A DNA stretch of 64,000 bases. It comes from Escherichia coli (lineage in GTDB: Bacteria > Pseudomonadota > Gammaproteobacteria > Enterobacterales > Enterobacteriaceae). The first letter of the stretch is position 1. The number at the start of each line of letters is the position of its first letter. The position numbers and the translations under genes are program-made. The DNA lies in the NCBI RefSeq assembly GCF_030013595.1, contig NZ_CP122768.1; one strand, given 5' to 3'. The notes under the pieces were generated by a model. The model did no database searches and had not been told where the DNA came from. It worked only from the letters and a program-made list of their open reading frames with translations. Positions 397 to 21,285 of the stretch are shown here, piece by piece.

Positions 397-1032
397 TTAG
401 CGAGCTAATATATTCAAAGAATTTAACAATTGAGTGTCGAGTGTTTCAGTTGCAGGAATCGGTAATCCATTCGCAATGCGGTAATTTTTCACAGACAGCC
501 TTGTGGATGGCCCCATTATGCCGTCAATATTTCCGTTATAAAATCCCCTGTCCAGCAATGCGAACTGAACTCGCATAATCAATCGCTTACGTTTCTCTGC
601 ATCAGAAGCAAGCCCATTACTCGTACGGTTAACCTCTGAAGTTCCAACAGAACTCGTGTTAGTGGTTCTATTATTATCGTTAGAACGAAGTGCACGCACC
701 GAGGAAGAGGACGATGAGGAACTTGCACCTGAACTTGAAGAACCAGATGAACTTGGTGAGCTGTATGTTTTTGGATAATAGGGGGTACTTCCACCATAGT
801 ATCCACCACCTGATGAGGATCTATGAGAGCTATGGCTCCTATGAGAACTATGGCTTCGATGCCCTGCGATATAAAATGGGACTTCCGTGTTAAGTGGAGC
901 TATCACTAAATCATGCTCATTAAGAGTCATACCAGGTAAATCACTCGCTCCTGTAGATGAATCGCTTGCCCATACAGAATTGTTGAGAGCCAAAAATCCC
1001 GGAAGTAGAGCAGCAAAATTAAACTTTTTCAT
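397..1032 (-). CDS. hxsA: HxsA-type His-Xaa-Ser repeat protein (signal peptide, tandem H-x-S triplets, Ser/Gly/Tyr-rich tract, C-terminal peptidoglycan-binding domain)
   Basis: Translation from MKKFNFAALLPGFLALNNSVWA (Sec-like signal) contains HRSHSSHRSHSSHRS, then SSPSSSGSSSSGASSSSSSSS, then a PG_binding_1-like C-terminus (LLDRGFYNGNIDGIMGPSTRLSVKNYRIANGL). Start ATG overlaps upstream gene stop (ATGA). Confidence 0.8.
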   Translation of the reverse strand: MKKFNFAALLPGFLALNNSVWASDSSTGASDLPGMTLNEHDLVIAPLNTEVPFYIAGHRSHSSHRSHSSHRSSSGGGYYGGSTPYYPKTYSSPSSSGSSSSGASSSSSSSSVRALRSNDNNRTTNTSSVGTSEVNRTSNGLASDAEKRKRLIMRVQFALLDRGFYNGNIDGIMGPSTRLSVKNYRIANGLPIPATETLDTQLLNSLNILAR

Positions 1033-2141: not shown

Positions 2142-3522
2142 ATGCCCATCCTTTTAGCATCTCAGCCTTCGAACCACCCTCTGAGATGCAGTTCATCAGA
2201 TACCTGAACATCCCCTTGTGATATTGACAAAACGTTGAACGACTCCTATCACCGACAGGCTCACCCTGTACACTTATGTTCTGGCATGGATCTGAACCAC
2301 AAAATGGTTGATATGCACATGTATCACAACCTGGCAGAGCAAAATTGAACGATGAACTCAATACTGCGTTATAGTAAGGACTATCAGAAAATGATAGCGT
2401 CTTAACTTCACCCGCACTGAACTCCGTTTCAGGATTCACCTTCTGCAACATACGGCTCTCATCGCTACCATATACTCGACCGTCATAATTGAAAAGAATA
2501 CTGTTAAGCACGACTCCACTTGGAGACTTTAAATCCGCATAACCACTAAAACCGGGATTGAAGATCCTTTTCAGATGAATGGAGGCCGAATGTTCCACAA
2601 CCCTTATCCCTTCATTATTAATCTTAAGGATTTCATCTATCAACGAGGCATAGAAGCTGAAGTATTCGTCCATAGAAAAGGTGAAAGAAGCTTTTTGTGC
2701 AAACCCATAGGGACTAACAGGTCGGATAAACATGTCCTTGAGACCAAGAGACAAGTGAGCCTGAACAATCGATTCAGGACGTCTGATAAGCTCTTTAGTA
2801 ACTGTAGTAACCGTTGCAACGCGGCCAGCACCTAAAGAGTGTTTGATAGCCTCTACCCCTGACACTGTTCTACTGTACGCAAGCCCACGACCAAGAATTC
2901 GATTACTGTTGTGAACAACTTCCTCACCATCAAGCGACACAGAGAACGTTATGTTCCGGTCTCTCGACCATTCAATCATATCCTCATTCAAGACAGACAG
3001 ACTTGATGCCACCACCATCTCAAAATTGGTTCTTCCCAGCGTTTCAGCACATTGATCATAGATGCTCTGAATTAAATCAAACCGCAAGAGAGGCTCCCCA
3101 CCCTGTATCTCTATTTTGTAAGGTGGCGTTGATAGTTTTTTAATAGCCGAAATAATATCGGGGATGAGCTCAGGATTTAGGTCGTAACCTGAGGCATTAA
3201 CAGAAGCTCTACTAACCTGGCAATACTTGCATGTATGGTCACAACGTAATGTGGGTACAATCATGAAAATTGGCCTGACAGCCAGTTCATTCATCAATCG
3301 TTTTGCAAAAGCAGAACTTAAAGCATAGGGAGTTATAGCAGATGAGCTTTCACTGGTTATGAAAAGCTTACTTTCTAGCACGTTTGATTGCTCCGAACTA
3401 ATTCGCTCATCAGAAAGATCAATAAGGTCTTGCTCACCAATGAAATGATGAAAACCTGCAAGGTTGCTTATAAACACCTGTCCATTAGGCAATCTGTCAA
3501 AATTAAATGGCATCAATTCCAT
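2134..3522 (-). CDS. Radical SAM/SPASM-type maturase of the His-Xaa-Ser system (HxsB/HxsC-type)
   Basis: 462 aa ORF with CDHTCKYC radical SAM motif and C-terminal auxiliary-cluster cysteines (CDTCAYQPFCGSDPCQ...FCQ); stop overlaps next gene start by 8 nt; start overlaps hxsD stop (TAATG). Confidence 0.8.
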   Translation of the reverse strand: MELMPFNFDRLPNGQVFISNLAGFHHFIGEQDLIDLSDERISSEQSNVLESKLFITSESSSAITPYALSSAFAKRLMNELAVRPIFMIVPTLRCDHTCKYCQVSRASVNASGYDLNPELIPDIISAIKKLSTPPYKIEIQGGEPLLRFDLIQSIYDQCAETLGRTNFEMVVASSLSVLNEDMIEWSRDRNITFSVSLDGEEVVHNSNRILGRGLAYSRTVSGVEAIKHSLGAGRVATVTTVTKELIRRPESIVQAHLSLGLKDMFIRPVSPYGFAQKASFTFSMDEYFSFYASLIDEILKINNEGIRVVEHSASIHLKRIFNPGFSGYADLKSPSGVVLNSILFNYDGRVYGSDESRMLQKVNPETEFSAGEVKTLSFSDSPYYNAVLSSSFNFALPGCDTCAYQPFCGSDPCQNISVQGEPVGDRSRSTFCQYHKGMFRYLMNCISEGGSKAEMLKGWAYV

Positions 3523-3836
3523 TATGAAAGCCTCTCATCAACACTGCGAAGCACTTTATGGACAATAGAGTCTCTCAACGCCCCTGTTTTATGCTGTAGC
3601 TTTTCTCGCAAAGAGTAATCATTAAGCAGCCTATCGAATTCATAAAGGAATTTGGGATTATCGTTTTCAAAAGAGATTATCCAGTGGGAAACGTCTTCAT
3701 GGAGTTTCCATCGAGTAAGCGGAGTCATCCAATATAGACTATTGCGTATAACCCATTCAGAATATAGTTCTTTCTCAAACACTCTTTCGCTCATTGCAAT
3801 TATCTTCCAATACAAATATTCATGATCAGCAACCAC
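3522..3836 (-). CDS. hxsD: HxsD-type small protein carrying the LLNDYxLRE signature
   Basis: 104 aa ORF containing FDRLLNDYSLREKLQ; first gene of the four-gene minus-strand operon. True start may be an internal Met (MSERVF). Confidence 0.75.
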   Translation of the reverse strand: MVADHEYLYWKIIAMSERVFEKELYSEWVIRNSLYWMTPLTRWKLHEDVSHWIISFENDNPKFLYEFDRLLNDYSLREKLQHKTGALRDSIVHKVLRSVDERLS

Positions 3837-4046: not shown

Positions 4047-4307
4047 ATGTTCCGTTGTCCGCTTTGTGGCGCATCCGCCCGAATCCGCACCAGTCGTCCG
4101 GAAAATGATTCAAACACCGTGCGGCAAAAGTATTACCAATGTAACAACCTAGAATGCGGCGTATGCTTCTCAACACTGGAAGCTTTCCATAAATTCACAT
4201 CAAAACACGCCTCCGGCGCTCACTCTTCAGAAGGTATCCCGTGGCATGAACTGCCAGCTTCACACAAAGGAAACAATCAGATGAGTTTGCCCTTACCTCA
4301 AAATTAA
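4047..4307 (+). CDS. ogr: Ogr/Delta-family zinc-finger late-gene transcription activator
   Basis: MFRCPLCGASARIRTSR...YYQCNNLECGVCF matches the P2 Ogr pattern (MFHCPLC..ARTSR...YHQCQNVNCSATF); C-terminally extended relative to P2 Ogr. Confidence 0.75.
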   Translation: MFRCPLCGASARIRTSRPENDSNTVRQKYYQCNNLECGVCFSTLEAFHKFTSKHASGAHSSEGIPWHELPASHKGNNQMSLPLPQN

Positions 4308-4902: not shown

Positions 4903-4928
4903 AAGAAAAAAGGCCGCAGAGCGGCCTT
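4903..4928 (-). terminator. Rho-independent terminator ending the minus-strand lambdoid gene set
   Basis: aggccgcagagcggcct hairpin with an A-run on plus strand (T-run on minus strand) immediately 3' of the ORF ending at 4949. Confidence 0.55.
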
Positions 4929-4948
4929 TATGGTTTATTGACAATTGA

Positions 4949-5164
4949 TTAAGACGTGTGGCACTTATTGGCACACCAATAGCAACCATTCACCCGGGAA
5001 TATCCTTTGGCCTTTGCCTCTGTTACCGCCGAAGAACAATCACTATAGTAACCAAGGTAATCGCGGTTAGCTACAGCAGGAAGATATGAACATTCCTCAG
5101 CATGCACCTCATGATCGCCATTGCTCTGAGCATTTTTGTTCACGTAATAGTGTTTAAAAACCAT
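4949..5164 (-). CDS. Hypothetical small Cys-rich phage protein
   Basis: 71 aa ORF, terminator immediately downstream; no family recognised. Confidence 0.4.
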   Translation of the reverse strand: MVFKHYYVNKNAQSNGDHEVHAEECSYLPAVANRDYLGYYSDCSSAVTEAKAKGYSRVNGCYWCANKCHTS

Positions 5165-5287
5165 TGTATAACTCCATGTTGACGCTGATATTCAGCATTA
5201 ACATGCTATATCACCAATTACACAAACATAAGCTTGTTATTTCAATTAGTTGATAACGATCACCACTGAACTTTGGCCTTGCGAAAT

Positions 5288-5497
5288 TCAAATGTTTTTC
5301 TGACTATTATTGGGCCGATAAACAGATATTATTTGAGCGTTTTGGTTCATTACATAAGCAATATCTCCATCTTTCAGAATGACTTTCCCATCCTTTCCCG
5401 ATACGGCAATACTCCGCTGCTCAGGATGATAGCCAATGCTACGCCCGCAATGGATCTCTTCCCCACCATTTTGAGACATGACTTTTACAGTTAACAT
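5288..5497 (-). CDS. Hypothetical small phage protein
   Basis: 69 aa ORF; no family recognised. Confidence 0.35.
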   Translation of the reverse strand: MLTVKVMSQNGGEEIHCGRSIGYHPEQRSIAVSGKDGKVILKDGDIAYVMNQNAQIISVYRPNNSQKNI

Positions 5498-5584
5498 TTT
5501 TCTGCTCCTATTTAGATGCCCTTTCCATCCGGGCCACTGTTCAAAGTAAATTTAGATTCAACAATATTCTGCTCTTACAGGCGA

Positions 5585-5767
5585 TCAGTTCTGCATACAC
5601 TGCCGAACACCGTCGACAATTTCACAGACCTGAGAAGCTGTATCGAAAAGCTGGCGCGCCTTATCCAGGCTGACGCATCCCACCAGGAAAAAAGGCACCA
5701 GTATCGCTACCAGTGCCCATTTCGCCGCCGTTCGCGGCATTCTGTGTGTCCAGTGTTTTCGCTTCAT
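5585..5767 (-). CDS. Small predicted lipoprotein (possible o-spanin or exclusion lipoprotein)
   Basis: MKRKHW... with hydrophobic signal and lipobox LVGC; lies downstream of the lysis cassette. Confidence 0.4.
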   Translation of the reverse strand: MKRKHWTHRMPRTAAKWALVAILVPFFLVGCVSLDKARQLFDTASQVCEIVDGVRQCMQN

Positions 5768-6266
5768 CTCACTATCCACCAATCAATCCGGATAAGCTCA
5801 ATACTCGCCAGGCGGTGGAAATGAAAATGGCAACCAACATTGCTGAAAATGAAAGGCCAACAACCACACAGAGAATTCGCGCCAGTTTTATAATGCTATC
5901 TGACATATTTACCCCTGCCCCACTTACGATTTCACAGCAATGAGCAATTTTGCCATCCCATACAGCATCGGAGACACAGCGATACCGACCGCCACCCACT
6001 TAATGGCAAAAGCCACCGCTCTGCTGATGTCATCAGTTACAGGCGCTTTCAATTCAAGGCCGTTTTTCATAGTCAACCTCAACAGAATTAGTTTATACTT
6101 CCTCATGTTCTCCTTTGCCTTACCCAAGGCCAGAAACAGAAAACCCCGGACTGTTACCGCAGCCGGGGTTTTTGCTATCTGATGCTATGCCCCTTACTTT
6201 CGCTCATCGTAGCCCCAGAAAAGAGCCTGCATGAGTTGAGGGTGTTCAGCACTTCAGTGTCAGTTT

Positions 6267-6812
6267 TTAAACCACCACGCGCTCTTTCATCCAGCCATAG
6301 ACAAACGACTCATTGGCCTCGCGTTTCTCTGCCAGCTCCAGATAACGCTCGCCCTGCGTACAGTTCAGGGCTTTCACCAGTACCAGTTCACCATCCCTGC
6401 TGCGATTTTTCAGATATGCCCGTAATGCATTAAGAGTACGCGGCCCGATGCGTCCATCAGCATCCATATCCGGATAGAGTTTCCCGCGCAGGTTGAAAAC
6501 GTTCAGCCAGCGCTGAAGCATTCTGGACGCCACAGTTGGCCCCATGTTCACGCCCGTATCGCACAACTCTGCGGCAATATCCGGAGACAGGTCCTCAACC
6601 TGGTCGAATCGTGGTCCGTACCAGTAGTCCGCCTCGAGTATTTCCAGCGCCTGCCCACGCGTCAGGTCACGCATATCGCCCTGATAACCGTGTGCACGGG
6701 CAACTTTTTCAGTGATGCCCCATTTAGTCGGACCACCTTTATCATCCGGGTGATTGACGTAACCGCCCTCTTTTCCCAGAATTTCGTCAAAAATTTCATC
6801 TTTCGACTTCAT
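6267..6812 (-). CDS. Endolysin, GH108-like muramidase with peptidoglycan-binding region
   Basis: MKSKDEIFDEILGKEGGYVNHPDDKGGPTKWGITE N-terminus typical of GH108 lysozyme-like phage proteins; follows two holin-like membrane genes. Confidence 0.65.
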   Translation of the reverse strand: MKSKDEIFDEILGKEGGYVNHPDDKGGPTKWGITEKVARAHGYQGDMRDLTRGQALEILEADYWYGPRFDQVEDLSPDIAAELCDTGVNMGPTVASRMLQRWLNVFNLRGKLYPDMDADGRIGPRTLNALRAYLKNRSRDGELVLVKALNCTQGERYLELAEKREANESFVYGWMKERVVV

Positions 6813-6813
6813 A

Positions 6814-7104
6814 TCAGCGCCTTCGTAATACAAGGATTTTTGATACGTTCCCGCGTGCTCGTATCACCAGCACGCAGAACACCAGGTTAATCAGGACGAC
6901 CAGCCAGTTACCGGGAGGAAAGCGACCACACAGATAACAAAGCGGCGCAAAGGCATAAAGCAGCATCAGCAGCCAGGCCAGCCACGACATCAGCGGTTTA
7001 TGTCTCGACTCACCACGACGATAAAAAAAGAGCGTCAGCACGATAACCGTGCTTAACACCACATTCAGTAATCCGGGAAGGTTACTTAACATTACCGCCT
7101 CCAC
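6814..7104 (-). CDS. Small multi-pass membrane protein, holin/antiholin-like
   Basis: 96 aa, strongly hydrophobic segments, wedged between holin-like gene and endolysin. Confidence 0.45.
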   Translation of the reverse strand: MEAVMLSNLPGLLNVVLSTVIVLTLFFYRRGESRHKPLMSWLAWLLMLLYAFAPLCYLCGRFPPGNWLVVLINLVFCVLVIRARGNVSKILVLRRR

Positions 7105-7471
7105 CCCGCAGACGGGAGAACAGCCCGGATACCAGCGATGCGATATCCTGCTGGTGGATGAATGAGAGAATCTTCACCGACACCACCGATACCAGTACCG
7201 CACAAAGCGCGTCGAGAGATGTGCTGTGGAGATTCAATTTTTCGACCAGCCAGGACGCAAGGACATCCGCCCCCAGCACGCCAACAATGAACGACACCAG
7301 AAAATGCGCCGCCACACGCCAGACAGAAATCACCTGTGGCATCGTGGCCACAAACAACGCCCCGGCAAACGCGCCAAACACAATCCCGAAATCCGTCCCG
7401 GTAAACAGCCCGAATACCGTCGCCCCGCCGAGCGCCACAGCAGTGCTGGAACCGGATAAGGGTTCAGACAT
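7082..7471 (-). CDS. Holin-like membrane protein
   Basis: Start MSEPLSG at 7471 with GGAGAA RBS; Gly/Ala-rich transmembrane segments; first gene of the lysis cassette. Confidence 0.5.
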   Translation of the reverse strand: MSEPLSGSSTAVALGGATVFGLFTGTDFGIVFGAFAGALFVATMPQVISVWRVAAHFLVSFIVGVLGADVLASWLVEKLNLHSTSLDALCAVLVSVVSVKILSFIHQQDIASLVSGLFSRLRGGGGNVK

Positions 7472-7670
7472 ATTTATTCTCCTGTAAATAAAAAGGACCA
7501 TCAGCGGCCCCGTAACTGACATTTTATTAACGTTTGAAGATATGGATATTTATCAGGGTTTACCGTTTTCTGAACCCTGGATATGTTAAGCATTCAGCCC
7601 GCCAGTGGTGGGACGCTGGCTCATCATAGAGAAAGAGGGATGGCTGATTACCTCTGATCAGGGAAATCAC

Positions 7671-7940
7671 ATGCAGTTTTTACATAAAAGAATGCATTTA
7701 AATGCAGGAGATACGGTAGTGGTTGACTGCTCTCATCAGTGCAATATTTTGCTGATGACAGATACAAACTTTAATAACTACCGCAACGCAAGAAGCTTTC
7801 ATCATCACGGTGGTGGCGGTTTTTTTCAGAGATTACCGGCCCACCTTCATGTACCGCATTCAGGTTACTGGAATATTACAATTGATTTAGGAGGCGGAAG
7901 TGCAGCTATTCGGCACTCCATTTCCGTCATCCCAGCATAG
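7671..7940 (+). CDS. Hypothetical phage protein, antisense to the late operon
   Basis: ATG at 7671 with AGGGA RBS (the listed ORF begins at a GTG at 7605); hairpin plus T-run downstream at about 8196-8235. Confidence 0.4.
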   Translation: MQFLHKRMHLNAGDTVVVDCSHQCNILLMTDTNFNNYRNARSFHHHGGGGFFQRLPAHLHVPHSGYWNITIDLGGGSAAIRHSISVIPA

Positions 7941-8298
7941 CAACTCGCCTTTAGCCTGAGTAAATGCGTCCTCAAGGACGGCAACGAGTCGCAGTTGCGT
8001 GCCGTCCTTTACACAGCGTGTGCAGGCAATACCTTCAGAACTTTCATTATGCCGAGCTCATACAATTTCACCATTTTGTTCAACTACAACGCTCATAATT
8101 TTCTTACACTTTTTTAATAAACCACACCAATAACAACCATCACCGATACCTTTTGTATGCTGTTATTTTGCATTACGGTGTAACGGCAAGAGCCCCCTCC
8201 CCGCCCTGAAAGGCTCTGTGTTTTTGATGTGCGCCTGATGTGGCTCAGATACAAAAAAGCTCGCAGTAGCGAGCTAACAGAAAATATGAAGCATGTTT

Positions 8299-8577
8299 TT
8301 ATCCACGAAGTATGACGTTGAATTCATCCATACCGACACGGCTGGCTATCTCGTTGTATTCCTCAACAAGAGCCAGCAATTCTGAATTAGCAGCCATGAA
8401 CTCTTCAAAAACCTTATGGATGGCATCACTGTTTAATAAAACAATGTTCTTTCCTGAAAGGCGATCAGGGGTAGAAAATATAACTGTCAAACGACTAAAG
8501 GCCCTGGCTCGTTCAGCATTAACATCCTCAATACGCTGCAACAAGCTGGAGCACCTGGAAATATCATCAATATTCAC
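8299..8577 (-). CDS. Hypothetical protein (cargo between Q and lysis genes)
   Basis: 92 aa ORF followed by a minus-strand hairpin terminator (gctcgcagtagcgagc with T-run) near 8254-8280. Confidence 0.4.
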   Translation of the reverse strand: MNIDDISRCSSLLQRIEDVNAERARAFSRLTVIFSTPDRLSGKNIVLLNSDAIHKVFEEFMAANSELLALVEEYNEIASRVGMDEFNVILRG

Positions 8578-9095
8578 TCTACTCCTGCCATCTGGATGAT
8601 AATCATTTCACGGAGAGAAGCACTCAGAAGTACCACTGAAGTATAGCTGGTGACCAGCTACTTACACATCTATTGCCATCCTGCTGATGATAAGTCGACA
8701 TTAGCCCTTCTGTCTATAAACGAAACAAAGGATAAGTTCAGGTTTTAAACACACTGCCAGGATAAAGTATTGTATACAGTATAGAAGAGCGTTATTGAAT
8801 GACATAAAAAACCAGACCTAATCCCTTATCCGGAAGATATATCAAATAAACGGGGAAAATGTATTAAGATGGCGTTCCTATTCTCTCCATCCCTGATGTC
8901 CACGTAACTCGTTATAGAATCAGAACGCCATCTGAATACACACAAAAAAGCTGACTTCACACCCTCCAGATGTGTGAACGCAGTGCCCGACCACGTGCTT
9001 TCGCAACCAGCACAAATCATTTTAAAGCATCGAAAAACGATCAGAATATATCAGAACTTCCTAGCATCCTGCTTGGCTTAGATATTAATCGAGGA

Positions 9096-10181
9096 TTAGC
9101 TCCTGTTCTTATCTAATTGTGCATTTCGCAATTTATCGTTCAGCACCAATATTTCACCAACTGTTTGTTCAAAACGCCCGGACTCAAGTTCAACCCCAAT
9201 CGTGCGACGCCCCAATCCCATTGCTGCTTTTATTGTTGCCCCCGATCCCATAAAAAAATCCGCAACCACATCCCCCGGACGACTGCTGGCAGAAATTATC
9301 TGACGCAACATATCCGCCGGTTTTTCGCAGGGATGCTTACCCGGATAATACTGCACGGGCTTATGCGTCCAGACGTCCGTATAAGGAACGGCGGCCGATA
9401 CAGAAAAATAACGCCGCAGAGATTTGTATTCCTCAAGCAGACTGGCATATTGCCGGTTCAGTTCACTGTATGTGCTGACCAGTTGCTGGTGTGGCGTTGC
9501 CAGCTCCCCACGCTGGTGCTTTTCTTCTGCAACACACGCGAACAGCGCCTGCAGTTTTCTGTAATCAGCTTCGTTCGGTAACTGCCACTGACAGGTACCA
9601 AACCAGTGCGACACCATGTTTTTCTTTCCGGTGGCTTCCGCTATCTGTTTGGACGTTATCCCCAGTGATTCACGCGCATCACGGAAGTAAGAAATCAGCG
9701 GGGCCATGACGTGTTGTTTAAGCTCGCGCTCCTTTGCCGCATAGCCATCATTTTTTGGCTGGTATGGCCCCTGATAATGTTCGGCAAACAGAATGCGCTC
9801 TGTTGCCGGGAAATACGCCCGCAGGCTTTCTTTGTTGCACCCGTTCCAGCGTCCGGATGGCTTCGCCCAGATAATGTGGTTCAGCACATTAAAGCGCTCA
9901 CGCATCATGATTTCGGTGTCAGATGCCAGGCGATGACCACAGAACAGGTAGAGACTTCCGGCAGGTTTCAGTACCCGCCAGAACTGAGCCAGACACTGAT
10001 CCAGCCATTTCAGGTAATCATCGTCGCCCTTCCACTGGTTATCCCAGCCCTCGGGCTTCACTTTAAAGTATGGCGGGTCTGTGACTATCAGATCGACAGA
10101 GTTTTCCGGTAAGGTCTGGATAAATTCCAGGCAATCAGCGTTGATTAACTCACAACTGGATATTTTTACAGTATCAACCAT
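9096..10181 (-). CDS. Orphan DNA N6-adenine (or N4-cytosine) methyltransferase, beta class
   Basis: LIVTDPPYF (motif IV) precedes DFFMGSGATIKAA (motif I); no adjacent restriction endonuclease gene. Confidence 0.75.
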   Translation of the reverse strand: MVDTVKISSCELINADCLEFIQTLPENSVDLIVTDPPYFKVKPEGWDNQWKGDDDYLKWLDQCLAQFWRVLKPAGSLYLFCGHRLASDTEIMMRERFNVLNHIIWAKPSGRWNGCNKESLRAYFPATERILFAEHYQGPYQPKNDGYAAKERELKQHVMAPLISYFRDARESLGITSKQIAEATGKKNMVSHWFGTCQWQLPNEADYRKLQALFACVAEEKHQRGELATPHQQLVSTYSELNRQYASLLEEYKSLRRYFSVSAAVPYTDVWTHKPVQYYPGKHPCEKPADMLRQIISASSRPGDVVADFFMGSGATIKAAMGLGRRTIGVELESGRFEQTVGEILVLNDKLRNAQLDKNRS

Positions 10182-10331
10182 AGATCAATAAGCACTTCTC
10201 TGATAGGCTCATACCGCTTTTGCGCAAAGCAGATGGGCCTGAGGTTTGCTTGTGACCCTAACGCATGAGCAGATGGCTGGCAGGTGCCGCTAACACCCAC
10301 CAGCCGCCCATTACCACAAATGAAAAAACCT

Positions 10332-10529
10332 TCACTGCGGAAGGCGTCTGTAACAACCGAACTGATAATCTGCCAGACCCGCCATAACAAGCTGGGTCAG
10401 TATTAACTGACAGCGTTCGCGTGAAAGGTAAGTATTCTGCGCAATTTCCCCAACTGTTGCCGGTTCAGTGACGCTTAATTCATTAAACACCACTCTGGCT
10501 GTTTCGGTCATATCCTGCTGTTTTAGCAT
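10332..10529 (-). CDS. Small hypothetical protein, possibly DNA-binding
   Basis: 65 aa ORF upstream of the methyltransferase. Confidence 0.3.
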   Translation of the reverse strand: MLKQQDMTETARVVFNELSVTEPATVGEIAQNTYLSRERCQLILTQLVMAGLADYQFGCYRRLPQ

Positions 10530-10702
10530 GTCTTTTTCTCTTTATTGGTTAACGTGACATACCAATAACTCTTGTCGAAAAAGCCAGCAAGCTGAAAGAC
10601 CGGTATTAATAACCACCTGCACATTTTATGTACCGAACCATTTTTCTGGCATAAAAAACCTCTCAATGGCGGGCGGTAAAAATCTTTGTTACTCAAGAAA
10701 TT

Positions 10703-11416
10703 TTAACGCACTCTGACTGTATTAATTTCAAAATCATTAATATTTCCGCTATTAAATATAACGAATTTCTTACCCCCACTCCTGTATGATTTCGATAACA
10801 CCAGACGATCATCATAACGCGCAATAATGTAATACCATACATTCTCATAGTGGATCGCCTGATATTCCCTCTTAAACTGTGGTTTGTACCAACCGGCAAT
10901 AAGAGAGAATGCCCAGAAATAAATCATAAACCCAGCCATCATGAACTCAATTCGGTGATGACGAATAAAAGACATTTCCGAAAAACATTTGACTGAAACA
11001 AGTCTTCTTCCAAACCTGACAAAAAGCGTGATTGTAAAGGCAGCAAGAATGCAGAAAATCAGTACATCTGGCTCAACATGCTGATGGATTACCGAAAACT
11101 CCAGAACAGGTGGAATAAAAAGCAGCAATATCGCGAGAAAAAGCCGGATAAAACTCAAATTTTGTATATTGCGCTTTTGTTTTATGCCCAAAAAGAAAAC
11201 AATACCAACTCCCCATCCAATAAGGAATATAACGATAACTGTCACAGCATAAAACAAACTTCGTGCTACATCATCGACACCAGCCCCGACAACCCACCAT
11301 GGAAAGCCATAGTAAAATGAAGTACCCCATCCATAGAAATAAGCGCTTCCCCATCCTAGACAGCCCATATAAGCAACAAAAAGTGAAGAGTTTCTGAGCA
11401 GAGCACTGTCATCCAT
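10703..11416 (-). CDS. Multi-pass membrane protein of unknown function (first gene after pR'/tR')
   Basis: 237 aa with about four hydrophobic helices and an approx 50 aa soluble C-terminus; lies in a visibly AT-rich segment. Confidence 0.5.
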   Translation of the reverse strand: MDDSALLRNSSLFVAYMGCLGWGSAYFYGWGTSFYYGFPWWVVGAGVDDVARSLFYAVTVIVIFLIGWGVGIVFFLGIKQKRNIQNLSFIRLFLAILLLFIPPVLEFSVIHQHVEPDVLIFCILAAFTITLFVRFGRRLVSVKCFSEMSFIRHHRIEFMMAGFMIYFWAFSLIAGWYKPQFKREYQAIHYENVWYYIIARYDDRLVLSKSYRSGGKKFVIFNSGNINDFEINTVRVR

Positions 11417-11554
11417 AGTAACACCATTAACAACTCAAAAATATCAACACATATTACATAACAAATTGGATTCCATGCAGTCAAGGGGCGTCATTGATGG
11501 AGAAAGTATTGGCACAATCATCATCACGTTTAATGTCTATGCCATTTTTTTGGG

Positions 11555-11583
11555 GATAAAAAAACCCGCTCGGTCACGGGTTT
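11555..11583 (-). terminator. tR'-like Rho-independent terminator
   Basis: aaacccgtgaccgagcggguuu hairpin followed by T-run on the minus strand, about 50 nt downstream of the putative pR'. Confidence 0.55.
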
Positions 11584-11637
11584 TACTAGCTTTGCCATCA
11601 CGTATAAAAACGGCAAAATATCAGATTCACACGAAAT

Positions 11638-11666
11638 ATATGCCTTTTTATCTACTTTTGCAATAC
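11638..11666 (-). promoter_or_regulatory. pR'-like late promoter immediately downstream of Q
   Basis: Minus-strand TTGCAA, 17 nt spacer, TATATT; positioned between Q stop (11671) and the terminator. Confidence 0.45.
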
Positions 11667-11670
11667 TTTG

Positions 11671-12342
11671 CTATGAAAATGCCGCCTTTTGTTTTGAACG
11701 TGTTCCCTCCACCAACAATAAAGCTTCACCATCCAGCCGATGAAAAATGTGTTTCATTGCAACCCAGTGACCAGTAAATGTCTTGGACCAGTTTTTGGTT
11801 GTTACTCCCACCAGTAACGCCAGTTCCTGGTATTCGTAACCTTCCCCACCAAAAAGCTCAGCTTTTACCGCCTGCGCCGCCAACCAGATCAACGTCTTCA
11901 GGCGCACCAGAGTTTTTCCTGCAATTTTTCTGGTACCGGATTGAGCATTAAATTCAGTCCACGCCCACTGCGTTATCGCGATCTGATGCTCCCAGCAAAT
12001 GCTACCGCTGTAACACCACAGCAGCCAGGCTTTATGATGTTCTTCAAGAGACAGAACGGCGCGTCGCCATGATGATGTCGAAAACTCAACCGGACTGACC
12101 AGGGCAATTGATGAACCTTTCACCAGCGATTGCTTTCCCGGGATCGGTGGATTATCCAGCGTTACTATTTTTCCAGTGACCTTATCGCGGTACCGGATTT
12201 TTTTACGTCTGTAACGCCCTGTATTGAACATGGCATTCTCCTGCCAGGCTTCAAGCTGACCTTTTGTTGCTCCACTCAAATCAGCGGTGGCGATCATGAG
12301 CTGCTCACGCACAAACTGTAAATACTGGTTATTCATGCGCAC
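11671..12342 (-). CDS. Probable late antiterminator (Q-like)
   Basis: 223 aa ORF directly upstream of a promoter/terminator pair and downstream of rusA, the canonical Q position; family assignment by context only. Confidence 0.45.
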   Translation of the reverse strand: MRMNNQYLQFVREQLMIATADLSGATKGQLEAWQENAMFNTGRYRRKKIRYRDKVTGKIVTLDNPPIPGKQSLVKGSSIALVSPVEFSTSSWRRAVLSLEEHHKAWLLWCYSGSICWEHQIAITQWAWTEFNAQSGTRKIAGKTLVRLKTLIWLAAQAVKAELFGGEGYEYQELALLVGVTTKNWSKTFTGHWVAMKHIFHRLDGEALLLVEGTRSKQKAAFS

Positions 12343-12692
12343 TCCAGTTCTGTGATTTTTATCCCCAGCCGACCACCGGGAACAACCTGACCGCGCATAA
12401 TATTAACTTCATCAAACTGCTCATCGTCGATAAGCAGTCCCGCATGTGTCAGCGCATCCAGTGGTGCCTTCAGGATATTGTCCAGGTCGCGGCGGCGCTT
12501 ATCCGGTGGCTCTGCAATAATTTTTATTGCCAGCCTTCCGGACAGGTTTAATTTCAGTCGCTGCTGGCGAACAATAAGCGCCACATCACGGCGATAACGC
12601 TCACCGGCTTTTGATACAAAATATGTGCTGCCACGACGTCGCCAGTAGGTGTTCACCGTTGGCGGGTAAGGCAAAACAAATTCTATCCCCAT
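12333..12692 (-). CDS. rusA: RusA-family Holliday junction resolvase
   Basis: 119 aa; PYPPTVNTYWRRRG...RRRDLDNILKAPLDALTHAGLLIDD matches RusA conserved motifs. Confidence 0.85.
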   Translation of the reverse strand: MGIEFVLPYPPTVNTYWRRRGSTYFVSKAGERYRRDVALIVRQQRLKLNLSGRLAIKIIAEPPDKRRRDLDNILKAPLDALTHAGLLIDDEQFDEVNIMRGQVVPGGRLGIKITELECA

Positions 12693-12704
12693 CAGTAACC
12701 TCTT

Positions 12705-13754
12705 TTATCCGAGTACGCCTGTTGCAAAGGCGTGATCAAGAAAACGAAAAATTAAATCAACCTGAGAACCATGTTTTTCTTCGAATGCCTGCGGATCCGC
12801 ATGAAGCTCGTTGTGATGCTCCCGACACAGCGGCAACGTAAAAATATCGTGGGCCTTTGTTCCCATCCCTCCCTGACCGTGACCAATCAGGTGATGGGGA
12901 TCGTCGGCTGGCTTACCACAACACGCACACGGCTGTGTCTTCACCCAGCGTGTGTATTTCTCATTTACCCAACGGCGACGTTTAGGTCGCTTCATGAAAG
13001 ATTCCGGAGACTCAGGATCAACGGCAATGCTGACCACCGTCTTTTCCTGTGGTGTGTTCTGTTGCTGGTGGACGTGAGGCAACGGCGCAAGATTTTTTGT
13101 GCGCTGCTTCAGTATGCTGGTGGCGGTCTGCTCTCCCGGTACGATGTCGCTTTCGCGGTAAACCGTGCGGATTTTTTCCGCACGTAATCCCAGAGAACGA
13201 CGTAATACTGCCTCCGGTAGCGCGTCCGCCACCTGATTGCAGACCGCCCACCAGGATAATTCAGCCAGCGATAATTCCCGTTCCTGTGCACCACTTATTG
13301 CGTGACGTATGACGTCAATCATCCAGGCTGTCAGATTTTGTTGAGCAAGCTGCCCGAGTGATTCGGATGTCTGGTCGCGCAGCTGGTTGTCGCAGTGCCA
13401 GCACAACAACATTGCGCCGGTACCGTAACGATGTATGACGGTTTCACTGTGGTGATAGTCTCCATGAGGCCACTGGCAGGATTTAACATGACGCAGGAGC
13501 CAGTCAGACAGTGCGCCAGCGCCGCCAGCAGCACGAATCACACGCTCATCGCTGAAAAACGGCAGCAATGTTTTATCTTCCGCCAGCGGCTGGCGAACGG
13601 CAGGAACGACTCCGGACGGCATACCGCGCATGTTTTTCGGTTCCGGCTCCACCAGCACCCTGCCGTTATGGAATACCTGCATGGATTCACGCCCCGGCTT
13701 AAGGACCACCAGCCCGAGTTCCGGTACCGGAACAGGTCGAAGTAATACCCGCAC
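12705..13754 (-). CDS. DUF968-like lambdoid nin-region protein with C-terminal Cys/His cluster
   Basis: 349 aa; C-terminus CACCGKPADDPHHL...CREHHNELH; family assignment from memory of YdfU-like prophage proteins. Confidence 0.5.
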   Translation of the reverse strand: MRVLLRPVPVPELGLVVLKPGRESMQVFHNGRVLVEPEPKNMRGMPSGVVPAVRQPLAEDKTLLPFFSDERVIRAAGGAGALSDWLLRHVKSCQWPHGDYHHSETVIHRYGTGAMLLCWHCDNQLRDQTSESLGQLAQQNLTAWMIDVIRHAISGAQERELSLAELSWWAVCNQVADALPEAVLRRSLGLRAEKIRTVYRESDIVPGEQTATSILKQRTKNLAPLPHVHQQQNTPQEKTVVSIAVDPESPESFMKRPKRRRWVNEKYTRWVKTQPCACCGKPADDPHHLIGHGQGGMGTKAHDIFTLPLCREHHNELHADPQAFEEKHGSQVDLIFRFLDHAFATGVLG

Positions 13755-13755
13755 G

Positions 13756-14028
13756 TTACCTCCAGATGCGTTGCTGGAATGTGCGGGACGGACGCGGCGG
13801 GCGTTCGGAATAAGGGAGCCTGACGTAGATTATCCAGTGATGGTAGTCGAGGCTAAGGGCTTTCTTAAACTCATACCCACGTCTGCGGTAGTTATGAATC
13901 AGCCATTCGGCCTGTTCTTCAGTGCAGGGATCGTGCTGATACCAGTCATATTTGAATGTGTGAGAACACCGCCCTTGCCTGCTGGCAGGGGCGGTATCAG
14001 AATTGTGATGTTTGGTATTGTGCGCCAT
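13756..14028 (-). CDS. Hypothetical nin-region protein
   Basis: ORF; likely start MAHNTKHH. Confidence 0.35.
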   Translation of the reverse strand: MAHNTKHHNSDTAPASRQGRCSHTFKYDWYQHDPCTEEQAEWLIHNYRRRGYEFKKALSLDYHHWIIYVRLPYSERPPRPSRTFQQRIWR

Positions 14029-14163
14029 CGGTTTTCTCTGCTGGCGCAGCAGGTGCCAGTTGTTCAAGCTGGCGTGCGGCAATATTGTCTCTGATTTCTG
14101 TTGTCGTCAACAGGCAACGTGCTATCATCGAATGGTGTTCTATCCTACTCCGTGAGGTTTACC

Positions 14164-14421
14164 ATGCGTACAACCCAACAATTCAGCATTACATTAACTA
14201 ACGAAATGGCTGACATGGTGCGCGCCCGTGTGGCTTCCGGTGCCTATGCTTCAGAAAGCGAGGTCATTCGTGAAGGGCTTCGCGCACTGAATGAGCGCGA
14301 TAAAGCAATCGAAGCGTGGTTAACGCATTCAGCCGCCCCCTCTCTTGATTCTATCCGCGAAACCCCAAACAACGGACGCTCCATTTCACAGGTTCGCGCC
14401 GCGATTCGATCCGGGAAGTAA
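14164..14421 (+). CDS. parD: ParD-family antitoxin (ribbon-helix-helix)
   Basis: 85 aa; MRTTQQFSITLTNEMADMVRARVASGAYASESEVIREGLRAL typical ParD; immediately upstream of a ParE-like gene. Confidence 0.8.
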   Translation: MRTTQQFSITLTNEMADMVRARVASGAYASESEVIREGLRALNERDKAIEAWLTHSAAPSLDSIRETPNNGRSISQVRAAIRSGK

Positions 14422-14426
14422 TCTGC

Positions 14427-14726
14427 ATGACATATGAAGTCATCATTACTCCTGAGGCCGAACAACAAATAATCAACCTGCACAGGTATATAACGGAGAA
14501 AGCAGGGAACGTCATTGCTGACAATTATGCCAATGCGCTTCTTGATTATCTTGATGGGTTTTCTACATTCCCGCATCGGGGCAATAAACGCGATGATATT
14601 CGCCAGGGGATGCGGGTAACTCATTTCCGCCACAGAACGATTATTGCTTTTGCCGTTGATAGCAGAAAAGTCTTTATTGTCGGTATCTATCATGGTGGGC
14701 AAAGTTATGAAACCGATTTCTTATAA
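14427..14726 (+). CDS. parE: ParE/RelE-family toxin
   Basis: 99 aa; starts 6 nt after parD stop; a hairpin terminator follows. Confidence 0.75.
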   Translation: MTYEVIITPEAEQQIINLHRYITEKAGNVIADNYANALLDYLDGFSTFPHRGNKRDDIRQGMRVTHFRHRTIIAFAVDSRKVFIVGIYHGGQSYETDFL

Positions 14727-14807
14727 ACTTTTACCCACATCATTCCGGTGTTAGAATTAACCGTCCGCCCCCTCTCTTACTGGCGGATTCGTAGGCTATA
14801 TAAATCA

Positions 14808-14845
14808 AAGATCCCGGCTCATGTTTGTGTCGGGATCTTTTTTCG
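14808..14845 (+). terminator. Rho-independent terminator after parDE
   Basis: gatcccgg..ccgggatc hairpin followed by TTTTTT. Confidence 0.6.
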
Positions 14846-14850
14846 GCGAT

Positions 14851-14934
14851 TTATCCCCAGCGGCAAATCGAATACACCACCAGCGCCACCGCCATCGCAA
14901 TTCCTACCGTTGTGAATGCTTCAGGCCAGGTCAT
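14851..14934 (-). CDS. Possible 27-aa hydrophobic peptide translationally coupled to the upstream gene
   Basis: ATG overlaps stop of the 114-aa gene (ATGA); peptide [27 protein letters not shown]. Below the ORF-track length cutoff, so speculative. Confidence 0.25.
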
Positions 14935-15275
14935 CGTAAAATATCCTCCACGCTTATCAGTCCGTTCCGCTCCAGATAACTCATCGCCTTATCCGGTAAT
15001 TTGCAGTCTGGCTTCGCTTTCCTCAGTTGCCAGGTTAACTGCTTTACCAGCATGGTTAACTCATCGACCAGACGCTGATATCCCACTGGTTTGTATTCAT
15101 GCAATTTACCGGCTGGCTCTGCTGCCAGCGATACCAGTGCGATTTCCAGAACAGCAATATCCATCTTATATGTGCGGATGATGTCATGGTCGATTGTGCC
15201 CGGTATGCACAGTCTCTGTGCTTCAATAGTCTCCTCTGCGTGAGCTATTAACTGCTCTCTGGTAAAAGTCGTCAT
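14931..15275 (-). CDS. Hypothetical phage protein
   Basis: 114 aa ORF overlapping the HNH gene stop by 4 nt. Confidence 0.4.
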
Positions 15276-20055: not shown

Positions 20056-20084
20056 CGAATGAACTCCAAAAACACACAGAAATA

Positions 20085-20150: not shown

Positions 20151-20178
20151 TACAATGAGCATAGGAGAATATTAAGCA

Positions 20179-21126: not shown

Positions 21127-21127
21127 T

Positions 21128-21259: not shown

Positions 21260-21285
21260 GCGAAGCAGCACCGCGAGGAATCAGT

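Follow-up and report, generated by a model that had tools for sequence, protein, structure and literature searches.

What does this Escherichia coli prophage carry between its late antiterminator gene Q and its lysis genes? A preliminary description of the 64,000-nucleotide stretch analysed here (hereafter the window) had placed about 4 kb of cargo between Q/pR' and the lysis cassette, and had equated this place with the toxin position of Stx phages. Both points were confirmed: position 7471 is the start of the holin gene, 11560 fits the terminator at 11584-11558, and the Stx phage phiP27 carries stx2eAB between the same flanking blocks. We consider it probable that the interval 7472-11560 represents the hypervariable late leader of a remnant lambdoid prophage whose immunity region is Rac-like and whose antiterminator is of the Q82 type.

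Gene content and boundaries of the interval

On the minus strand, Q is followed by a pR'-like promoter, a tR'-like terminator, five non-structural genes, two holins and an endolysin (Table 1); four of the five array genes read on this strand and one, encoding a DUF1883 protein, on the plus strand. Q was named 'bacteriophage antitermination protein Q' by PGAP in a 99.9%-identical genome and shares 76% identity with the Q82-like antiterminator of phage 434, with DNA homology running 57 bp beyond the stop codon. A promoter scan placed a sigma-70-like site (TTGCAA-17-TATATT) at 11663-11635(-), and folding gave a canonical hairpin, AAAACCCG..CGGGUUUUUUU, at 11584-11558(-), with a stem of -11.5 kcal/mol followed by U7; their location after Q suggests the role of late leader. 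At the opposite boundary, the lysis genes are ~85% identical to those of phiP27 (holins, window 6832-7510) and of SerU-LTIIb (holins and endolysin).

Table 1 Features of the array, its non-coding elements and its boundaries (positions in the window)
Feature	Position	Strand	Basis or remark
Antiterminator Q, Q82 type, 223 aa	11671-12342	-	phrog_304, E 1.6e-104; upstream boundary of array
Late-promoter leader, pR'-like site and tR'-like intrinsic terminator	11558-11663	-	Promoter scan, sequence reading, folding
Integral membrane protein, 237 aa, Pfam PF27470 'TfpB'	10703-11416	-	phrog_1521, E 1e-84; first gene past tR'
65-aa acidic protein, weakly winged-helix-like (TrmB/MarR-like)	10332-10529	-	phrog_331, E 1e-37
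Orphan beta-class N6-adenine DNA methyltransferase, M.EcoGII family, 361 aa	9096-10181	-	Pfam N6_N4_Mtase, E 1e-41
Non-coding spacer, 518 bp	8578-9095	-	No tRNA, no Rfam match
92-aa acidic soluble protein	8299-8577	-	phrog_2873, E 9e-47
Intrinsic terminator and ~80-bp element	8191-8275	-	Terminator scan and fold
DUF1883 cassette, 694 bp	7511-8204	+	Gene, hairpin and upstream block
Hairpin just 3' of DUF1883 stop	7976-8007	+	Terminator scan and fold
Stand-alone DUF1883 gene, 89 aa	7671-7940	+	Start from homologues and PGAP
80-bp block upstream of DUF1883 gene	7542-7620	+	Part of DUF1883 cassette
Lysis cassette	6267-7511	-	PGAP annotation of 99.9%-identical genome; downstream boundary
Terminator-like hairpin of lysis cassette	7511-7486	-	Terminator scan and fold
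Holin	7082-7471	-	PGAP start 7471; phrog_198, E 3.5e-41
Second holin	6814-7092	-	PGAP annotation
GH108 endolysin	6267-6812	-	PGAP annotation

The five genes had been described as lying outside phage morphogenesis, and none of the five ORFs matched a core lambdoid function. Homology searches of each ORF returned accessory families (PF27470, M.EcoGII and DUF1883), but no toxin gene was found in the array, nor any PADLOC defence protein there apart from the methyltransferase. The content is an anti-restriction DNA methylase and four other proteins. Base composition is uneven: G+C is 0.36-0.43 in the leader, the membrane-protein gene (0.39) and 7671-9095, 0.485 in Q and 0.50-0.57 in the methyltransferase, holin, endolysin and RusA genes; the AT-rich parts of the array are its modules other than the methyltransferase. 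Terminator-like sites were in modest excess (9 vs 5.3 +/- 2.2 in shuffled sequence), whereas promoter-like sites were not (8 vs 8.7), so that promoters belonging to the 92-aa and DUF1883 genes themselves are putative.

The same frame was seen in seven arrangements, namely this window, ARS-C301, 442/2, AREA_497, phiP27, SerU-LTIIb and O157 Xuzhou21. ARS-C301 has TerB and DUF3927 added at window position 8205/8206; in strain 442/2 the same two genes replace the DUF1883 cassette; the AREA_497 prophage, colinear in other respects, is missing three genes, those for the membrane protein, the 92-aa protein and DUF1883; SerU-LTIIb carries tRNAs and an additional holin; and Xuzhou21 has Q, three tRNAs, TerB and DUF3927. 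In other E. coli the slot holds TerB/DUF3927 or no annotated gene. phiP27 (NC_003356, L21-L30) has Q, a variable gene, L23 (65 aa), the L24 methyltransferase, a variable slot, a small opposite-strand gene and then two holins, with ~90% DNA identity over L23-L24 (window 9160-10660). It differs in having tRNA-Ile, tRNA-Arg, stxA2e, stxB2e and the opposite-strand L27 where the window has its 518-bp spacer, 92-aa gene and DUF1883, a GIY-YIG nuclease (L22) in place of the TfpB-family membrane protein, another type of Q (126 aa vs 223 aa) and another type of endolysin. The late leader of phage 434 ('434B non-homology', OL657226) likewise has a Q82-type antiterminator, a terminator, a TfpB-family first late gene and further small accessory genes ahead of the lysis genes, but these are TciB (DUF3927), a small membrane protein and a NanS-p esterase, and the methyltransferase module, 92-aa gene and DUF1883 are absent. 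The array is probably made up of at least four modules independently gained, lost and swapped among related phages, and not a single functional system.

The 65-aa gene and methyltransferase module

The orphan methyltransferase named in the preliminary description was borne out by a match to N6_N4_Mtase with no restriction partner. Its motif order is that of the beta class, with DPPY N-terminal and FMGSG C-terminal, and 293 of 345 residues (85%) are identical to M.EcoGII (reference sequence taken from PMC11551740, supplement file 5). M.EcoGII and M.EcoGI, encoded by prophages of E. coli O104:H4, methylate adenine non-specifically (PMC5778455). M.EcoGII resembles the window enzyme in its order of DPPY, target-recognition domain and FxGxG, in being an orphan in a lambdoid late region and in having the same small gene upstream, as in phage 1720a-02; it differs in length (349 aa vs 361 aa), in its C-terminal tail and by some substitutions in the central target-recognition region. 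The enzyme of 1720a-02, described as very similar to M.EcoGII (PMC5778455), is also 85% identical to that of the window, and Stx2a phages are reported to encode methylases of ~352 aa on the downstream side of Q (PMC10462455).

The small upstream gene is tightly conserved. Its product is identical at 63 of 63 aligned residues to its counterpart in Stx phage 1720a-02, and the gene differs from phiP27 L23 by six synonymous and no non-synonymous changes; at loci where the upstream region was available, it precedes the methyltransferase in phiP27, 1720a-02, ARS-C301, 442/2 and AREA_497. A terminator-like hairpin (10345-10322) overlaps its stop codon. The label 'possibly DNA-binding' given to this protein holds as far as a weak Pfam TrmB match (E 0.0027) carries it, this being the sole source of the winged-helix signal.

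A sequence-specific methyltransferase within a restriction-modification or other defence system, with the 65-aa protein as controller and an unrecognised nuclease nearby, is a very improbable reading of the pair. The best PADLOC model of the enzyme is labelled Type II MTase (MTase_II PDLC03265, E 8e-153), a small helix-turn-helix-like gene directly upstream is a layout like that of restriction-modification controller proteins, and phiP27 has its GIY-YIG nuclease two genes upstream. However, the phiP27 nuclease slot is occupied here by the membrane protein, no neighbour in the window matched a nuclease or restriction-enzyme model, the call on the putative controller is weak, and the closest characterised enzyme is orphan and non-specific.

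On sequence comparison, the 65-aa gene and the methyltransferase form a two-gene module that is conserved among Stx phages and their relatives and is not exotic cargo. The expectation that genes in this place are frequently virulence or defence morons does not hold for the methyltransferase: at 85% identity to M.EcoGII, the enzyme most likely protects the phage from host restriction, an anti-restriction role serving the phage (PMC5778455; PMC10462455). It is the one part of the array whose predicted function is well founded, with non-specific activity probable from its resemblance to M.EcoGII. Against this, a handful of changes in the target-recognition domain can alter methyltransferase specificity, and the two enzymes differ at 15% of residues.

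The AT-rich accessory genes

The first array gene encodes a multi-pass protein in which four windows are strongly hydrophobic, the N-terminus is rich in aromatic residues and Gly, and the C-terminal ~60 aa are soluble, in keeping with its earlier label as a membrane protein. PGAP names it 'STM1630 family', all its homologues (42-98% identity) have a precomputed PF27470 assignment, and phage 434 holds a 56%-identical copy straight after Q and the terminator.

The 92-aa protein, one of two hypotheticals noted before, has a predicted helix, beta-hairpin, helix topology (AlphaFold2 pLDDT 92), and its best PDB matches, prefoldin beta subunits (E 0.01), share topology only. The family is represented by only four clusters in a set of 5.8 billion proteins and by 19 hits in one of 1.84 billion representatives. 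In mEp460 a 61%-identical homologue follows Q, tRNA-Met and tRNA-Arg, and a 40%-identical homologue precedes TerB, DUF3927 and a holin; the recurrent order of 92-aa gene, TerB and DUF3927 hints that the gene may be part of a larger unit, incomplete here. A very small family bound to the late-leader position is mildly new.

Of the two non-coding gaps with hairpins reported previously, 7941-8298 is indeed 358 bp, but 8578-9095 is 518 bp and not 515, and hairpins were found at 8275-8253, 8007-7976 and 8978-8944. The tRNA and sRNA scans proposed for these gaps found no tRNA and no Rfam RNA; the hairpins in them are discrete terminators, and no structured RNA was seen (whole-gap folding of 8578-9095, z = -0.56). 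The longer spacer has a terminator-like hairpin (8978-8944) behind the methyltransferase gene and promoter-like sites (8805-8778 and 8716-8687) ahead of the 92-aa gene; it is annotated in none of the 50 genomes that carry it and showed no resemblance to the sequence preceding diverged 92-aa homologues. A 64-aa ORF at 8826-9020 is reduced to 32 aa in AREA_497, whose copy of the spacer is 79% identical. On the other side of the 92-aa gene, the terminator at 8275-8253 (AGCUCGC-UACU-GCGAGCU-U6, -11.9 kcal/mol) stands together with an ~80-bp element that follows the late-leader tRNA cluster in other lambdoid prophages, with ~80% identity to the tRNA-TerB stretch of O157 Xuzhou21 and matches in ~900 E. 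coli genomes; 33 bp at 8242-8274 match phiP27 between argO and stxA2e.

The second hypothetical is antisense, as described, but homologues and PGAP place its start at 7671 (89 aa), not at the head of ORF 7605-7940. DUF1883 recurs as a single opposite-strand late-region gene in Serratia, Pseudomonas, Citrobacter and Morganella prophages, and among the late genes of Klebsiella and Pseudomonas phages. The protein has 83-84% amino-acid identity among E. coli, Serratia and Morganella, with synonymous sites saturated. DUF1883 is among the domains in a figure of predominant TIR-protein architectures (PMC9153377), and the window protein shares the beta-sandwich of DUF1883-TIR/ADP-ribosyl cyclase fusions (Foldseek E ~1e-7, query-normalised TM-score ~0.9), from which it differs in being the domain alone, with no adjacent TIR or effector domain. 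This recurrence of a stand-alone, opposite-strand gene in temperate-phage late regions, with the same domain fused to TIR NADases elsewhere, is mildly new.

Such genes raise the prospect of lysogenic conversion, in which at least one of the DUF1883, 92-aa and TfpB-family proteins would help the host through superinfection exclusion, abortive infection or virulence, DUF1883 in particular by acting on TIR-type NADase immunity as a trans sensor or decoy. We regard this as possible, though doubtful. The genes fill the slot of stx2e in phiP27, are AT-rich and vary in presence among relatives; the DUF1883 gene is strongly conserved, has a hairpin of its own and the opposite orientation, and recurs as a lone inserted gene in temperate phages that are not related, while its domain also occurs fused to TIR and ADP-ribosyl cyclase effectors. 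Exclusion factors are often small membrane proteins of phages. On the other hand, none of the three candidates matches a PADLOC model or has a toxin-like, secreted or enzymatic signature, a search for phenotype reports on STM1630 returned none, and the 92-aa and membrane-protein genes are co-directional with late transcription, any promoters of their own being putative. Lysogenic conversion is compatible with a patchwork of independent modules.

Expression and persistence of the array

After induction, Q would load onto RNA polymerase at pR', giving read-through of tR' (11584-11558) and of four terminator-like hairpins (10345, 8978, 8275 and 7511), so that the TfpB-family protein, the 65-aa protein with the methyltransferase, the 92-aa protein and the holin-holin-endolysin genes would be transcribed in that order. 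Induction-dependent expression of the minus-strand array in this cut-off prophage is plausible. The methyltransferase, silent in the lysogen and turned on late, would modify adenines of replicating phage DNA with little or no sequence preference, and methylated progeny would evade the restriction systems of the next host. That all five genes depend on Q, as first supposed, fails for the DUF1883 gene, whose opposite orientation puts it out of reach of Q-dependent late transcription, so that it requires a promoter of its own; it would be transcribed most likely in the lysogen, as classic morons are, and its product would be a small cytoplasmic binding module with a beta-sandwich fold. The array resembles the morons of lambdoid and Stx phages (PMC8065619) in its late-region position, deviating base composition, variable presence and flanking terminators, as does the DUF1883 gene in its transcription independent of the late operon owing to orientation. 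It differs in that none of its genes is known to benefit the host, and the methyltransferase module would benefit the phage and is better termed an anti-restriction gene.

Could the interval instead be decaying DNA in a cryptic prophage, its ORFs intact only through the youth of the element and nothing in it functional? In the window the prophage ends ~1.4 kb past the endolysin, with terminase and structural genes missing beyond ~4907, and a near-identical locus in ETEC1706 has frameshifted or partial genes for terminase, portal and a DnaT-like replication protein; copies of the interval mostly share >=97% identity, and recent descent accordingly accounts for much of the intactness of the ORFs. 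Yet all five ORFs are under purifying selection against diverged copies, with dN/dS of 0.12-0.27 where measurable (0.12-0.14 for the methyltransferase, 0.13-0.27 for the 92-aa gene) and low dN with saturated dS elsewhere. Their reading frames are free of frameshifts and internal stops, the lysis genes are intact, as are Q and pR'/tR', and each gene holds the same relative position in phages just 40-60% identical, making an inert remnant unlikely.

With the morphogenesis genes lost, a benefit to progeny phage is not realisable at present, and the array genes may persist for another reason, or merely through recent descent. The 4 kb between late switch and lysis is a patchwork of swappable accessory genes, an ordinary case of a known kind.

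The Q-to-lysis frame and its exchangeable slots

The late region of the phage lies on the minus strand, and the interval at 7472–11560 is framed upstream by the gene for a Q antiterminator and downstream by two holin genes and a GH108 endolysin gene. Past Q lie a sigma-70-like promoter match and a canonical intrinsic terminator (AAAACCCG-loop-CGGGUUUUUUU, −11.5 kcal/mol), in the lambdoid pR'/tR' layout that the preliminary description had proposed. With Q, this putative pR'/tR' pair and the holin and endolysin genes in place, the interval fits, as far as sequence can tell, a lambdoid late-leader (Q to lysis) accessory region. All five ORFs predicted between terminator and lysis cassette are intact, from 10703–11416(−) to 7671–7940(+), and they are real genes, not chance ORFs. 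Measured against diverged copies, dN/dS was 0.13–0.27 for the 92-aa gene and 0.12–0.14 for the methyltransferase gene; the 65-aa gene differs from its homologue in the Stx2e phage phiP27 (NC_003356) by six synonymous and no non-synonymous changes, and for the DUF1883 and membrane-protein genes dS is saturated at a dN of just 0.12–0.44. Modules within the region are distinguished by base composition: G+C is 0.36–0.43 in the leader, the membrane-protein gene, the 518-bp gap, the 92-aa gene and DUF1883, and 0.50–0.57 in the methyltransferase, holin, endolysin and RusA genes, with Q at 0.485.

Features of the late region and its surroundings, by position (related loci last)
Feature	Position	Strand	Basis or remark
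HxsA	397–1110	−	NCBIfam; HRSHSS repeats
HxsC	1029–2141	−	NCBIfam
HxsB	2134–3522	−	NCBIfam
HxsD	3522–3836	−	NCBIfam
Ogr/Delta-type zinc-finger regulator	4047–4307	+	beside Hxs operon
Five small ORFs past endolysin (71, 69, 60, 44, 60 aa)	4949–6127	−	phrog_4298, 3909, 7528, 4906, 1115
GH108 endolysin	6267–6812	−	downstream, same strand as late genes
Second holin	6814–7092	−	downstream, same strand as late genes
Holin, first lysis gene	7082–7471	−	phrog_198, PGAP
Hairpin	7511–7486		directly ahead of holin ribosome-binding site
Stand-alone DUF1883 protein, 89 aa	7671–7940	+	Pfam PF08980
Hairpin	8007–7976		directly beyond DUF1883 stop
Strong terminator	8275–8253	−	past 92-aa gene; homologous to widespread element behind tRNAs
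92-aa protein	8299–8577	−	phrog_2873 match
Hairpin	8978–8944	−	past methyltransferase gene
Methyltransferase, 361 aa	9096–10181	−	Pfam N6_N4_Mtase PF01555, E 1e-41; PADLOC MTase_II, E 8e-153
65-aa protein	10332–10529	−	weak winged-helix signal, Pfam TrmB E 0.0027
TfpB-family membrane protein, 237 aa	10703–11416	−	phrog_1521 match
Putative tR', hairpin + U7	11584–11558	−	sequence + fold
Putative pR', TTGCAA-17-TATATT	11663–11635	−	sequence match
Q antiterminator	11671–12342	−	phrog_304, E 1.6e-104; 76% identity to Q82-like protein, phage 434
ParD/ParE type II toxin-antitoxin pair	~14164–14726	+	annotation of 99.96%-identical ETEC1706 locus
TerB/DUF3927 unit	L016 3151–3710; L020 3473–4047; L023 4489–5063		related loci

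Comparison with related phages and strains shows the interval to be a set of exchangeable slots. Phage phiP27 is ~90% identical to the window over 9160–10660 (65-aa and methyltransferase genes) and ~85% identical over 6832–7510 (holins), and between these blocks it carries tRNA-Ile, tRNA-Arg, stxA2e, stxB2e and the small opposite-strand gene L27; a 33-bp remnant of its argO–stxA spacer is found at window 8242–8274. The LT-II toxin phage SerU-LTIIb has the methyltransferase and lysis genes in common, with tRNAs and a duplicated holin between them and the LT-IIb genes after the endolysin. E. coli ARS-C301 has the window arrangement with TerB and DUF3927 inserted at 8205/8206, E. coli 442/2 carries TerB and DUF3927 in place of the DUF1883 cassette (window 7511–8204), and E. 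coli AREA_497 is without the membrane protein, 92-aa gene and DUF1883, having ~790 bp of unannotated DNA from methyltransferase to holin. O157 Xuzhou21 shows Q, three tRNAs, an ~80-bp element matching window 8274–8191, TerB, DUF3927 and NanS-p. The DUF1883 cassette, the membrane-protein gene and TerB/DUF3927 are polymorphic in presence or absence among colinear phages, and the polymorphic genes are moron-like in composition (G+C 0.39–0.43 vs 0.50–0.57 in flanking genes). The arrangement across 7000–12400 occurs in 48 of 5426 complete E. coli genomes, 39 of which also have the 7523–9095 part, and among the examples listed the hosts of the full arrangement are mostly pig and cattle isolates.

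Because related phages and strains fill the same frame, phiP27 with stxA2e and stxB2e, the earlier proposal that these ~4 kb of cargo occupy the position of Stx toxin genes is directly supported. The stx2e and eltIIb genes of phiP27 and SerU-LTIIb have no DNA similarity in the window, where the slot holds the 92-aa gene and DUF1883, and the ileZ/argN/argO-type tRNA cluster is absent, the ~80-bp element that elsewhere trails tRNAs being left over. Since toxin genes and tRNAs were both looked for and are absent, the prophage in the window is not an Stx or LT-II phage.

The non-coding gaps had been put at 358 and 515 bp; the first figure holds (7941–8298), and the second gap measures 518 bp (8578–9095). 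ARAGORN found no tRNA in the window, no Rfam RNA was detected in 6800–12400 up to E = 1, and whole-gap folding of both gaps was unremarkable (z = −0.56 and −1.13); a tRNA or small RNA in either gap was rejected on these grounds, discrete terminator hairpins excepted. A hairpin lies past the stop codon of both the 92-aa gene and the DUF1883 gene, and promoter-like sites are no commoner than chance. A hidden gene in the 518-bp gap was rejected, as the 64-aa ORF at 8826–9020(−), which has no ribosome-binding site by eye, is only 32 aa long in AREA_497, whose copy of the gap is 79% identical; so was the view of the gap as a leader conserved ahead of the 92-aa gene, since it has no sequence in common with the regions upstream of diverged homologues. 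An 80-bp block at 7542–7620, with a hairpin (CAGGGTT..AACCCTG), recurs at ~92% identity upstream of the lysozyme gene in ~100 E. coli prophages, and in strain LF82 it likewise lies between a lysis/late gene and an unrelated small opposite-strand gene; the block may serve opposite-strand morons as a portable promoter or as a recombination linker.

The methyltransferase and the 65-aa gene

Motifs in the methyltransferase run in the order DPPY (residues 35–38), target-recognition domain and FMGSG (~310–314), the last corresponding to FxGxG. The protein is identical to M.EcoGII at 293 of 345 residues (85%), the reference sequence, from the supplement of PMC11551740, being machine-read with a few reading errors. 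It is also 85% identical to the enzyme of Stx phage 1720a-02, which has been named as very similar to M.EcoGII (PMC5778455). PADLOC, NCBIfam and Pfam searches gave no match to a restriction enzyme or nuclease among the flanking ORFs; because no neighbour resembles a restriction enzyme, the methyltransferase was correctly called an orphan at the outset. Fold, motif order, full-length similarity and orphan state point to membership of the M.EcoGII family, and the locus probably encodes a non-specific adenine methyltransferase. M.EcoGII is prophage-borne, methylates adenine in any context, is silent in the lysogen, and impairs cell health if produced constitutively (PMC5778455), and methylases of ~352 aa lie downstream of Q in Stx2a phages (PMC10462455). 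The methyltransferase was the sole match in the interval to the known defence systems in PADLOC. The 65-aa gene precedes the methyltransferase in every locus whose upstream region could be inspected, and its product is identical at 63 of 63 aligned residues to that of the gene before the methyltransferase in phage 1720a-02.

In the scheme with the best support, Q-modified polymerase would start at pR' and pass five terminators, so that the membrane protein, the methyltransferase together with its winged-helix-like partner, and finally the 92-aa protein would be produced just ahead of lysis. The methyltransferase, were its specificity that of M.EcoGII, would hypermethylate phage DNA against restriction, and DUF1883 would be expressed independently, from the other strand. 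Of this scheme, the anatomy, homology, modularity and selection are observed, and the pattern of expression, the specificity of the enzyme and any role of the membrane, 92-aa and DUF1883 proteins are inferred.

The membrane, 92-aa and DUF1883 proteins

The 237-aa membrane protein combines four strong hydrophobic windows with an N-terminus rich in aromatic residues and glycine and a soluble tail of ~60 aa. Precomputed Pfam PF27470 ('TfpB') annotation is carried by its homologues of 42–98% identity, including those at 95–98%, and PGAP labels the identical protein WP_000342735.1 'STM1630 family'. It had no match in PADLOC or NCBIfam models, and a family profile search of PDB sequences returned nothing significant. 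Literature on STM1630 assigns the protein no function, and the name 'TfpB' retrieved only unrelated uses. The copy in phage 434, 56% identical, is likewise the first gene past Q and its terminator; chromosomal copies adjoining lpxR in Citrobacter and, in Salmonella, an sseJ-like gene have the appearance of phage remnants.

The 92-aa protein belongs to a tiny family, with four clusters among 5.8 billion proteins and 19 matches among 1.84 billion representatives. Its model (pLDDT 92) consists of two long helices linked by a beta-hairpin, and the best PDB matches, prefoldin beta subunits at E 0.01, indicate a likeness of topology only; no match reached E 0.001 or better, and a family profile search of PDB sequences found nothing significant. 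The order in phage mEp460 is Q, tRNA-Met, tRNA-Arg and then a 61%-identical copy, and in a phiP27-like prophage a 40%-identical copy is followed by TerB, DUF3927, two holins and the endolysin. On account of these placements, we assign the 92-aa gene to the same post-tRNA slot as stx. TerB and DUF3927 genes are frequent neighbours of the family and are absent from the window; the three genes may form one unit, and the window would then retain its first gene only. In mEp460 a TerB link was rejected, the 'TolA protein' near the 92-aa homologue not being TerB-like.

The pair of TerB (phrog_632) and DUF3927 (TciB-like, phrog_1470) genes itself recurs in the late-leader slot, often directly after the 92-aa gene, and was seen in E. 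coli ARS-C301, 442/2 and O157 Xuzhou21 and in the phiP27-like prophage; phage 434 has a DUF3927/TciB gene in the same slot without an annotated TerB gene.

For the DUF1883 gene the longest ORF starts at 7605, and PGAP and more than 100 homologues favour a start at 7671. The product matches Pfam DUF1883 at E 4.1e-26 over model positions 1–87 of 89, and is related to Atu1913 (PDB 2b1y, E 3e-8). Its model (pLDDT 93) is an eight-strand beta-sandwich that superposes on DUF1883 proteins of AFDB with a query-normalised TM-score of 0.9 or more; beyond the family, it matches generic sandwiches only. No hydrophobic segment hints at a signal peptide or membrane anchor, and the protein is therefore probably cytoplasmic. 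DUF1883 is rare among sequenced phages (3/50,697 records), and occurs as a single gene on the strand opposite to flanking late or structural genes in prophages of Serratia, Pseudomonas, Citrobacter and Morganella. Two phages, ST13-OXA48phi12.5 of Klebsiella and vB_Pae_U8 of Pseudomonas, have it in the same manner. The Morganella copy sits between the Q and holin genes, the very placement seen in the window; contexts in Mesorhizobium and Burkholderia are mobile-element-like and less clear. A literature search under 'PF08980' found nothing.

Foldseek against AFDB50 showed the DUF1883 domain also fused to TIR/ADP-ribosyl cyclase proteins of 230–280 aa, in agreement with a remark on DUF1883 in TIR proteins (PMC9153377), and the 268-position phrog_9211 profile is consistent with such fusions; A0A2N4YV94 of Klebsiella variicola is one DUF1883-TIR protein. 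The profile raised the idea that the window gene is the truncated front of a DUF1883-TIR protein; the more than 100 stand-alone homologues of 87–90 aa, together with strong purifying selection on the gene, led us to reject it. Unlike the DUF1883-TIR immune effectors, which carry a TIR/ADP-ribosyl cyclase domain, the window protein is the DUF1883 domain alone, and no such domain is present in it or in adjacent genes, its neighbours being the holin and the 92-aa gene. We consider it improbable, though worth stating, that the stand-alone opposite-strand DUF1883 protein is a widespread prophage modulator of TIR-type NADase immunity, acting as a sensor in trans or as a decoy that keeps host DUF1883-TIR effectors from working. 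On that view it would be expressed in the lysogen and would have been captured repeatedly, as a single-gene cassette, by temperate phages of many genera; a second counter-defence factor, unrelated to it, might be the 92-aa protein of the late leader.

A prophage remnant and the re-use of its late-leader slot

Over 4907–14986 the window matches E. coli ETEC1706 at 99.96% identity; left of 4907 the two are unrelated. E. coli EC42405 is a further strain with this prophage. As a caveat to the scheme above, the prophage in the window ends ~1.4 kb past the endolysin, other genes being encoded from 4906 leftwards; at the matching place ETEC1706 has genes for a DNA-packaging protein, a terminase (frameshifted) and a portal protein (partial), and the window instead has a His-Xaa-Ser (Hxs) island. 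To the left of the lysis cassette the window is devoid of terminase and structural genes, which marks the prophage as a remnant. The Hxs radical-SAM operon, 397–3836(−), is complete, with four of four genes above curated NCBIfam cut-offs, and directly adjoins the truncated late region on the late-gene strand; PADLOC gave only weak viperin-like radical-SAM matches there. The small ORFs past the endolysin all match phrogs of unknown function, and the product of 5585–5767, which has an LVGC lipobox-like motif, may be a spanin-type lipoprotein. Their stretch, 4949–6127, is the LT-IIb toxin position of SerU-LTIIb, and holds no toxin in the window. Within the nin-like region, the ParD/ParE pair seems to be one more accessory insertion on the opposite strand of this prophage. 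Beyond 14986, where ETEC1706 positions were converted to window coordinates by a shift of ~+80, ~19760–27131 comprises a Rac-like immunity region (racR, ydaS, ydaT) followed by dicB, an exonuclease gene and an integrase gene. The right attachment site is a 103-bp partial tRNA-Ser repeat at 27029–27131, just before yccA; the intact tRNA-Ser at the left end in ETEC1706 is absent from the window.

As an accessory array of a lambdoid late leader that includes a methyltransferase of the M.EcoGII family, the region is of a kind already known. Two of its components appear to be undescribed in the searchable literature, namely the recurrent opposite-strand stand-alone DUF1883 of temperate phages, with its TIR NADase fusions elsewhere, and the very small late-leader-tied 92-aa family. 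Although the locus is homologous to an Stx2e phage, and its lineage is common among pig and cattle isolates of E. coli, it is not a toxin locus. It offers a clean natural example of re-use of the Q-to-lysis slot: phiP27 fills the frame with stx2e and other E. coli fill it with TerB/TciB-like genes, one strain has nothing annotated there, and the window has two uncharacterised proteins. An M.EcoGII-type enzyme is relevant to reading methylomes and to predicting phage escape from restriction, and the array provides three conserved proteins under selection, in stereotyped positions, as candidates for exclusion, defence or counter-defence activity: the stand-alone DUF1883 protein, the 92-aa helical hairpin and the TfpB-family membrane protein.
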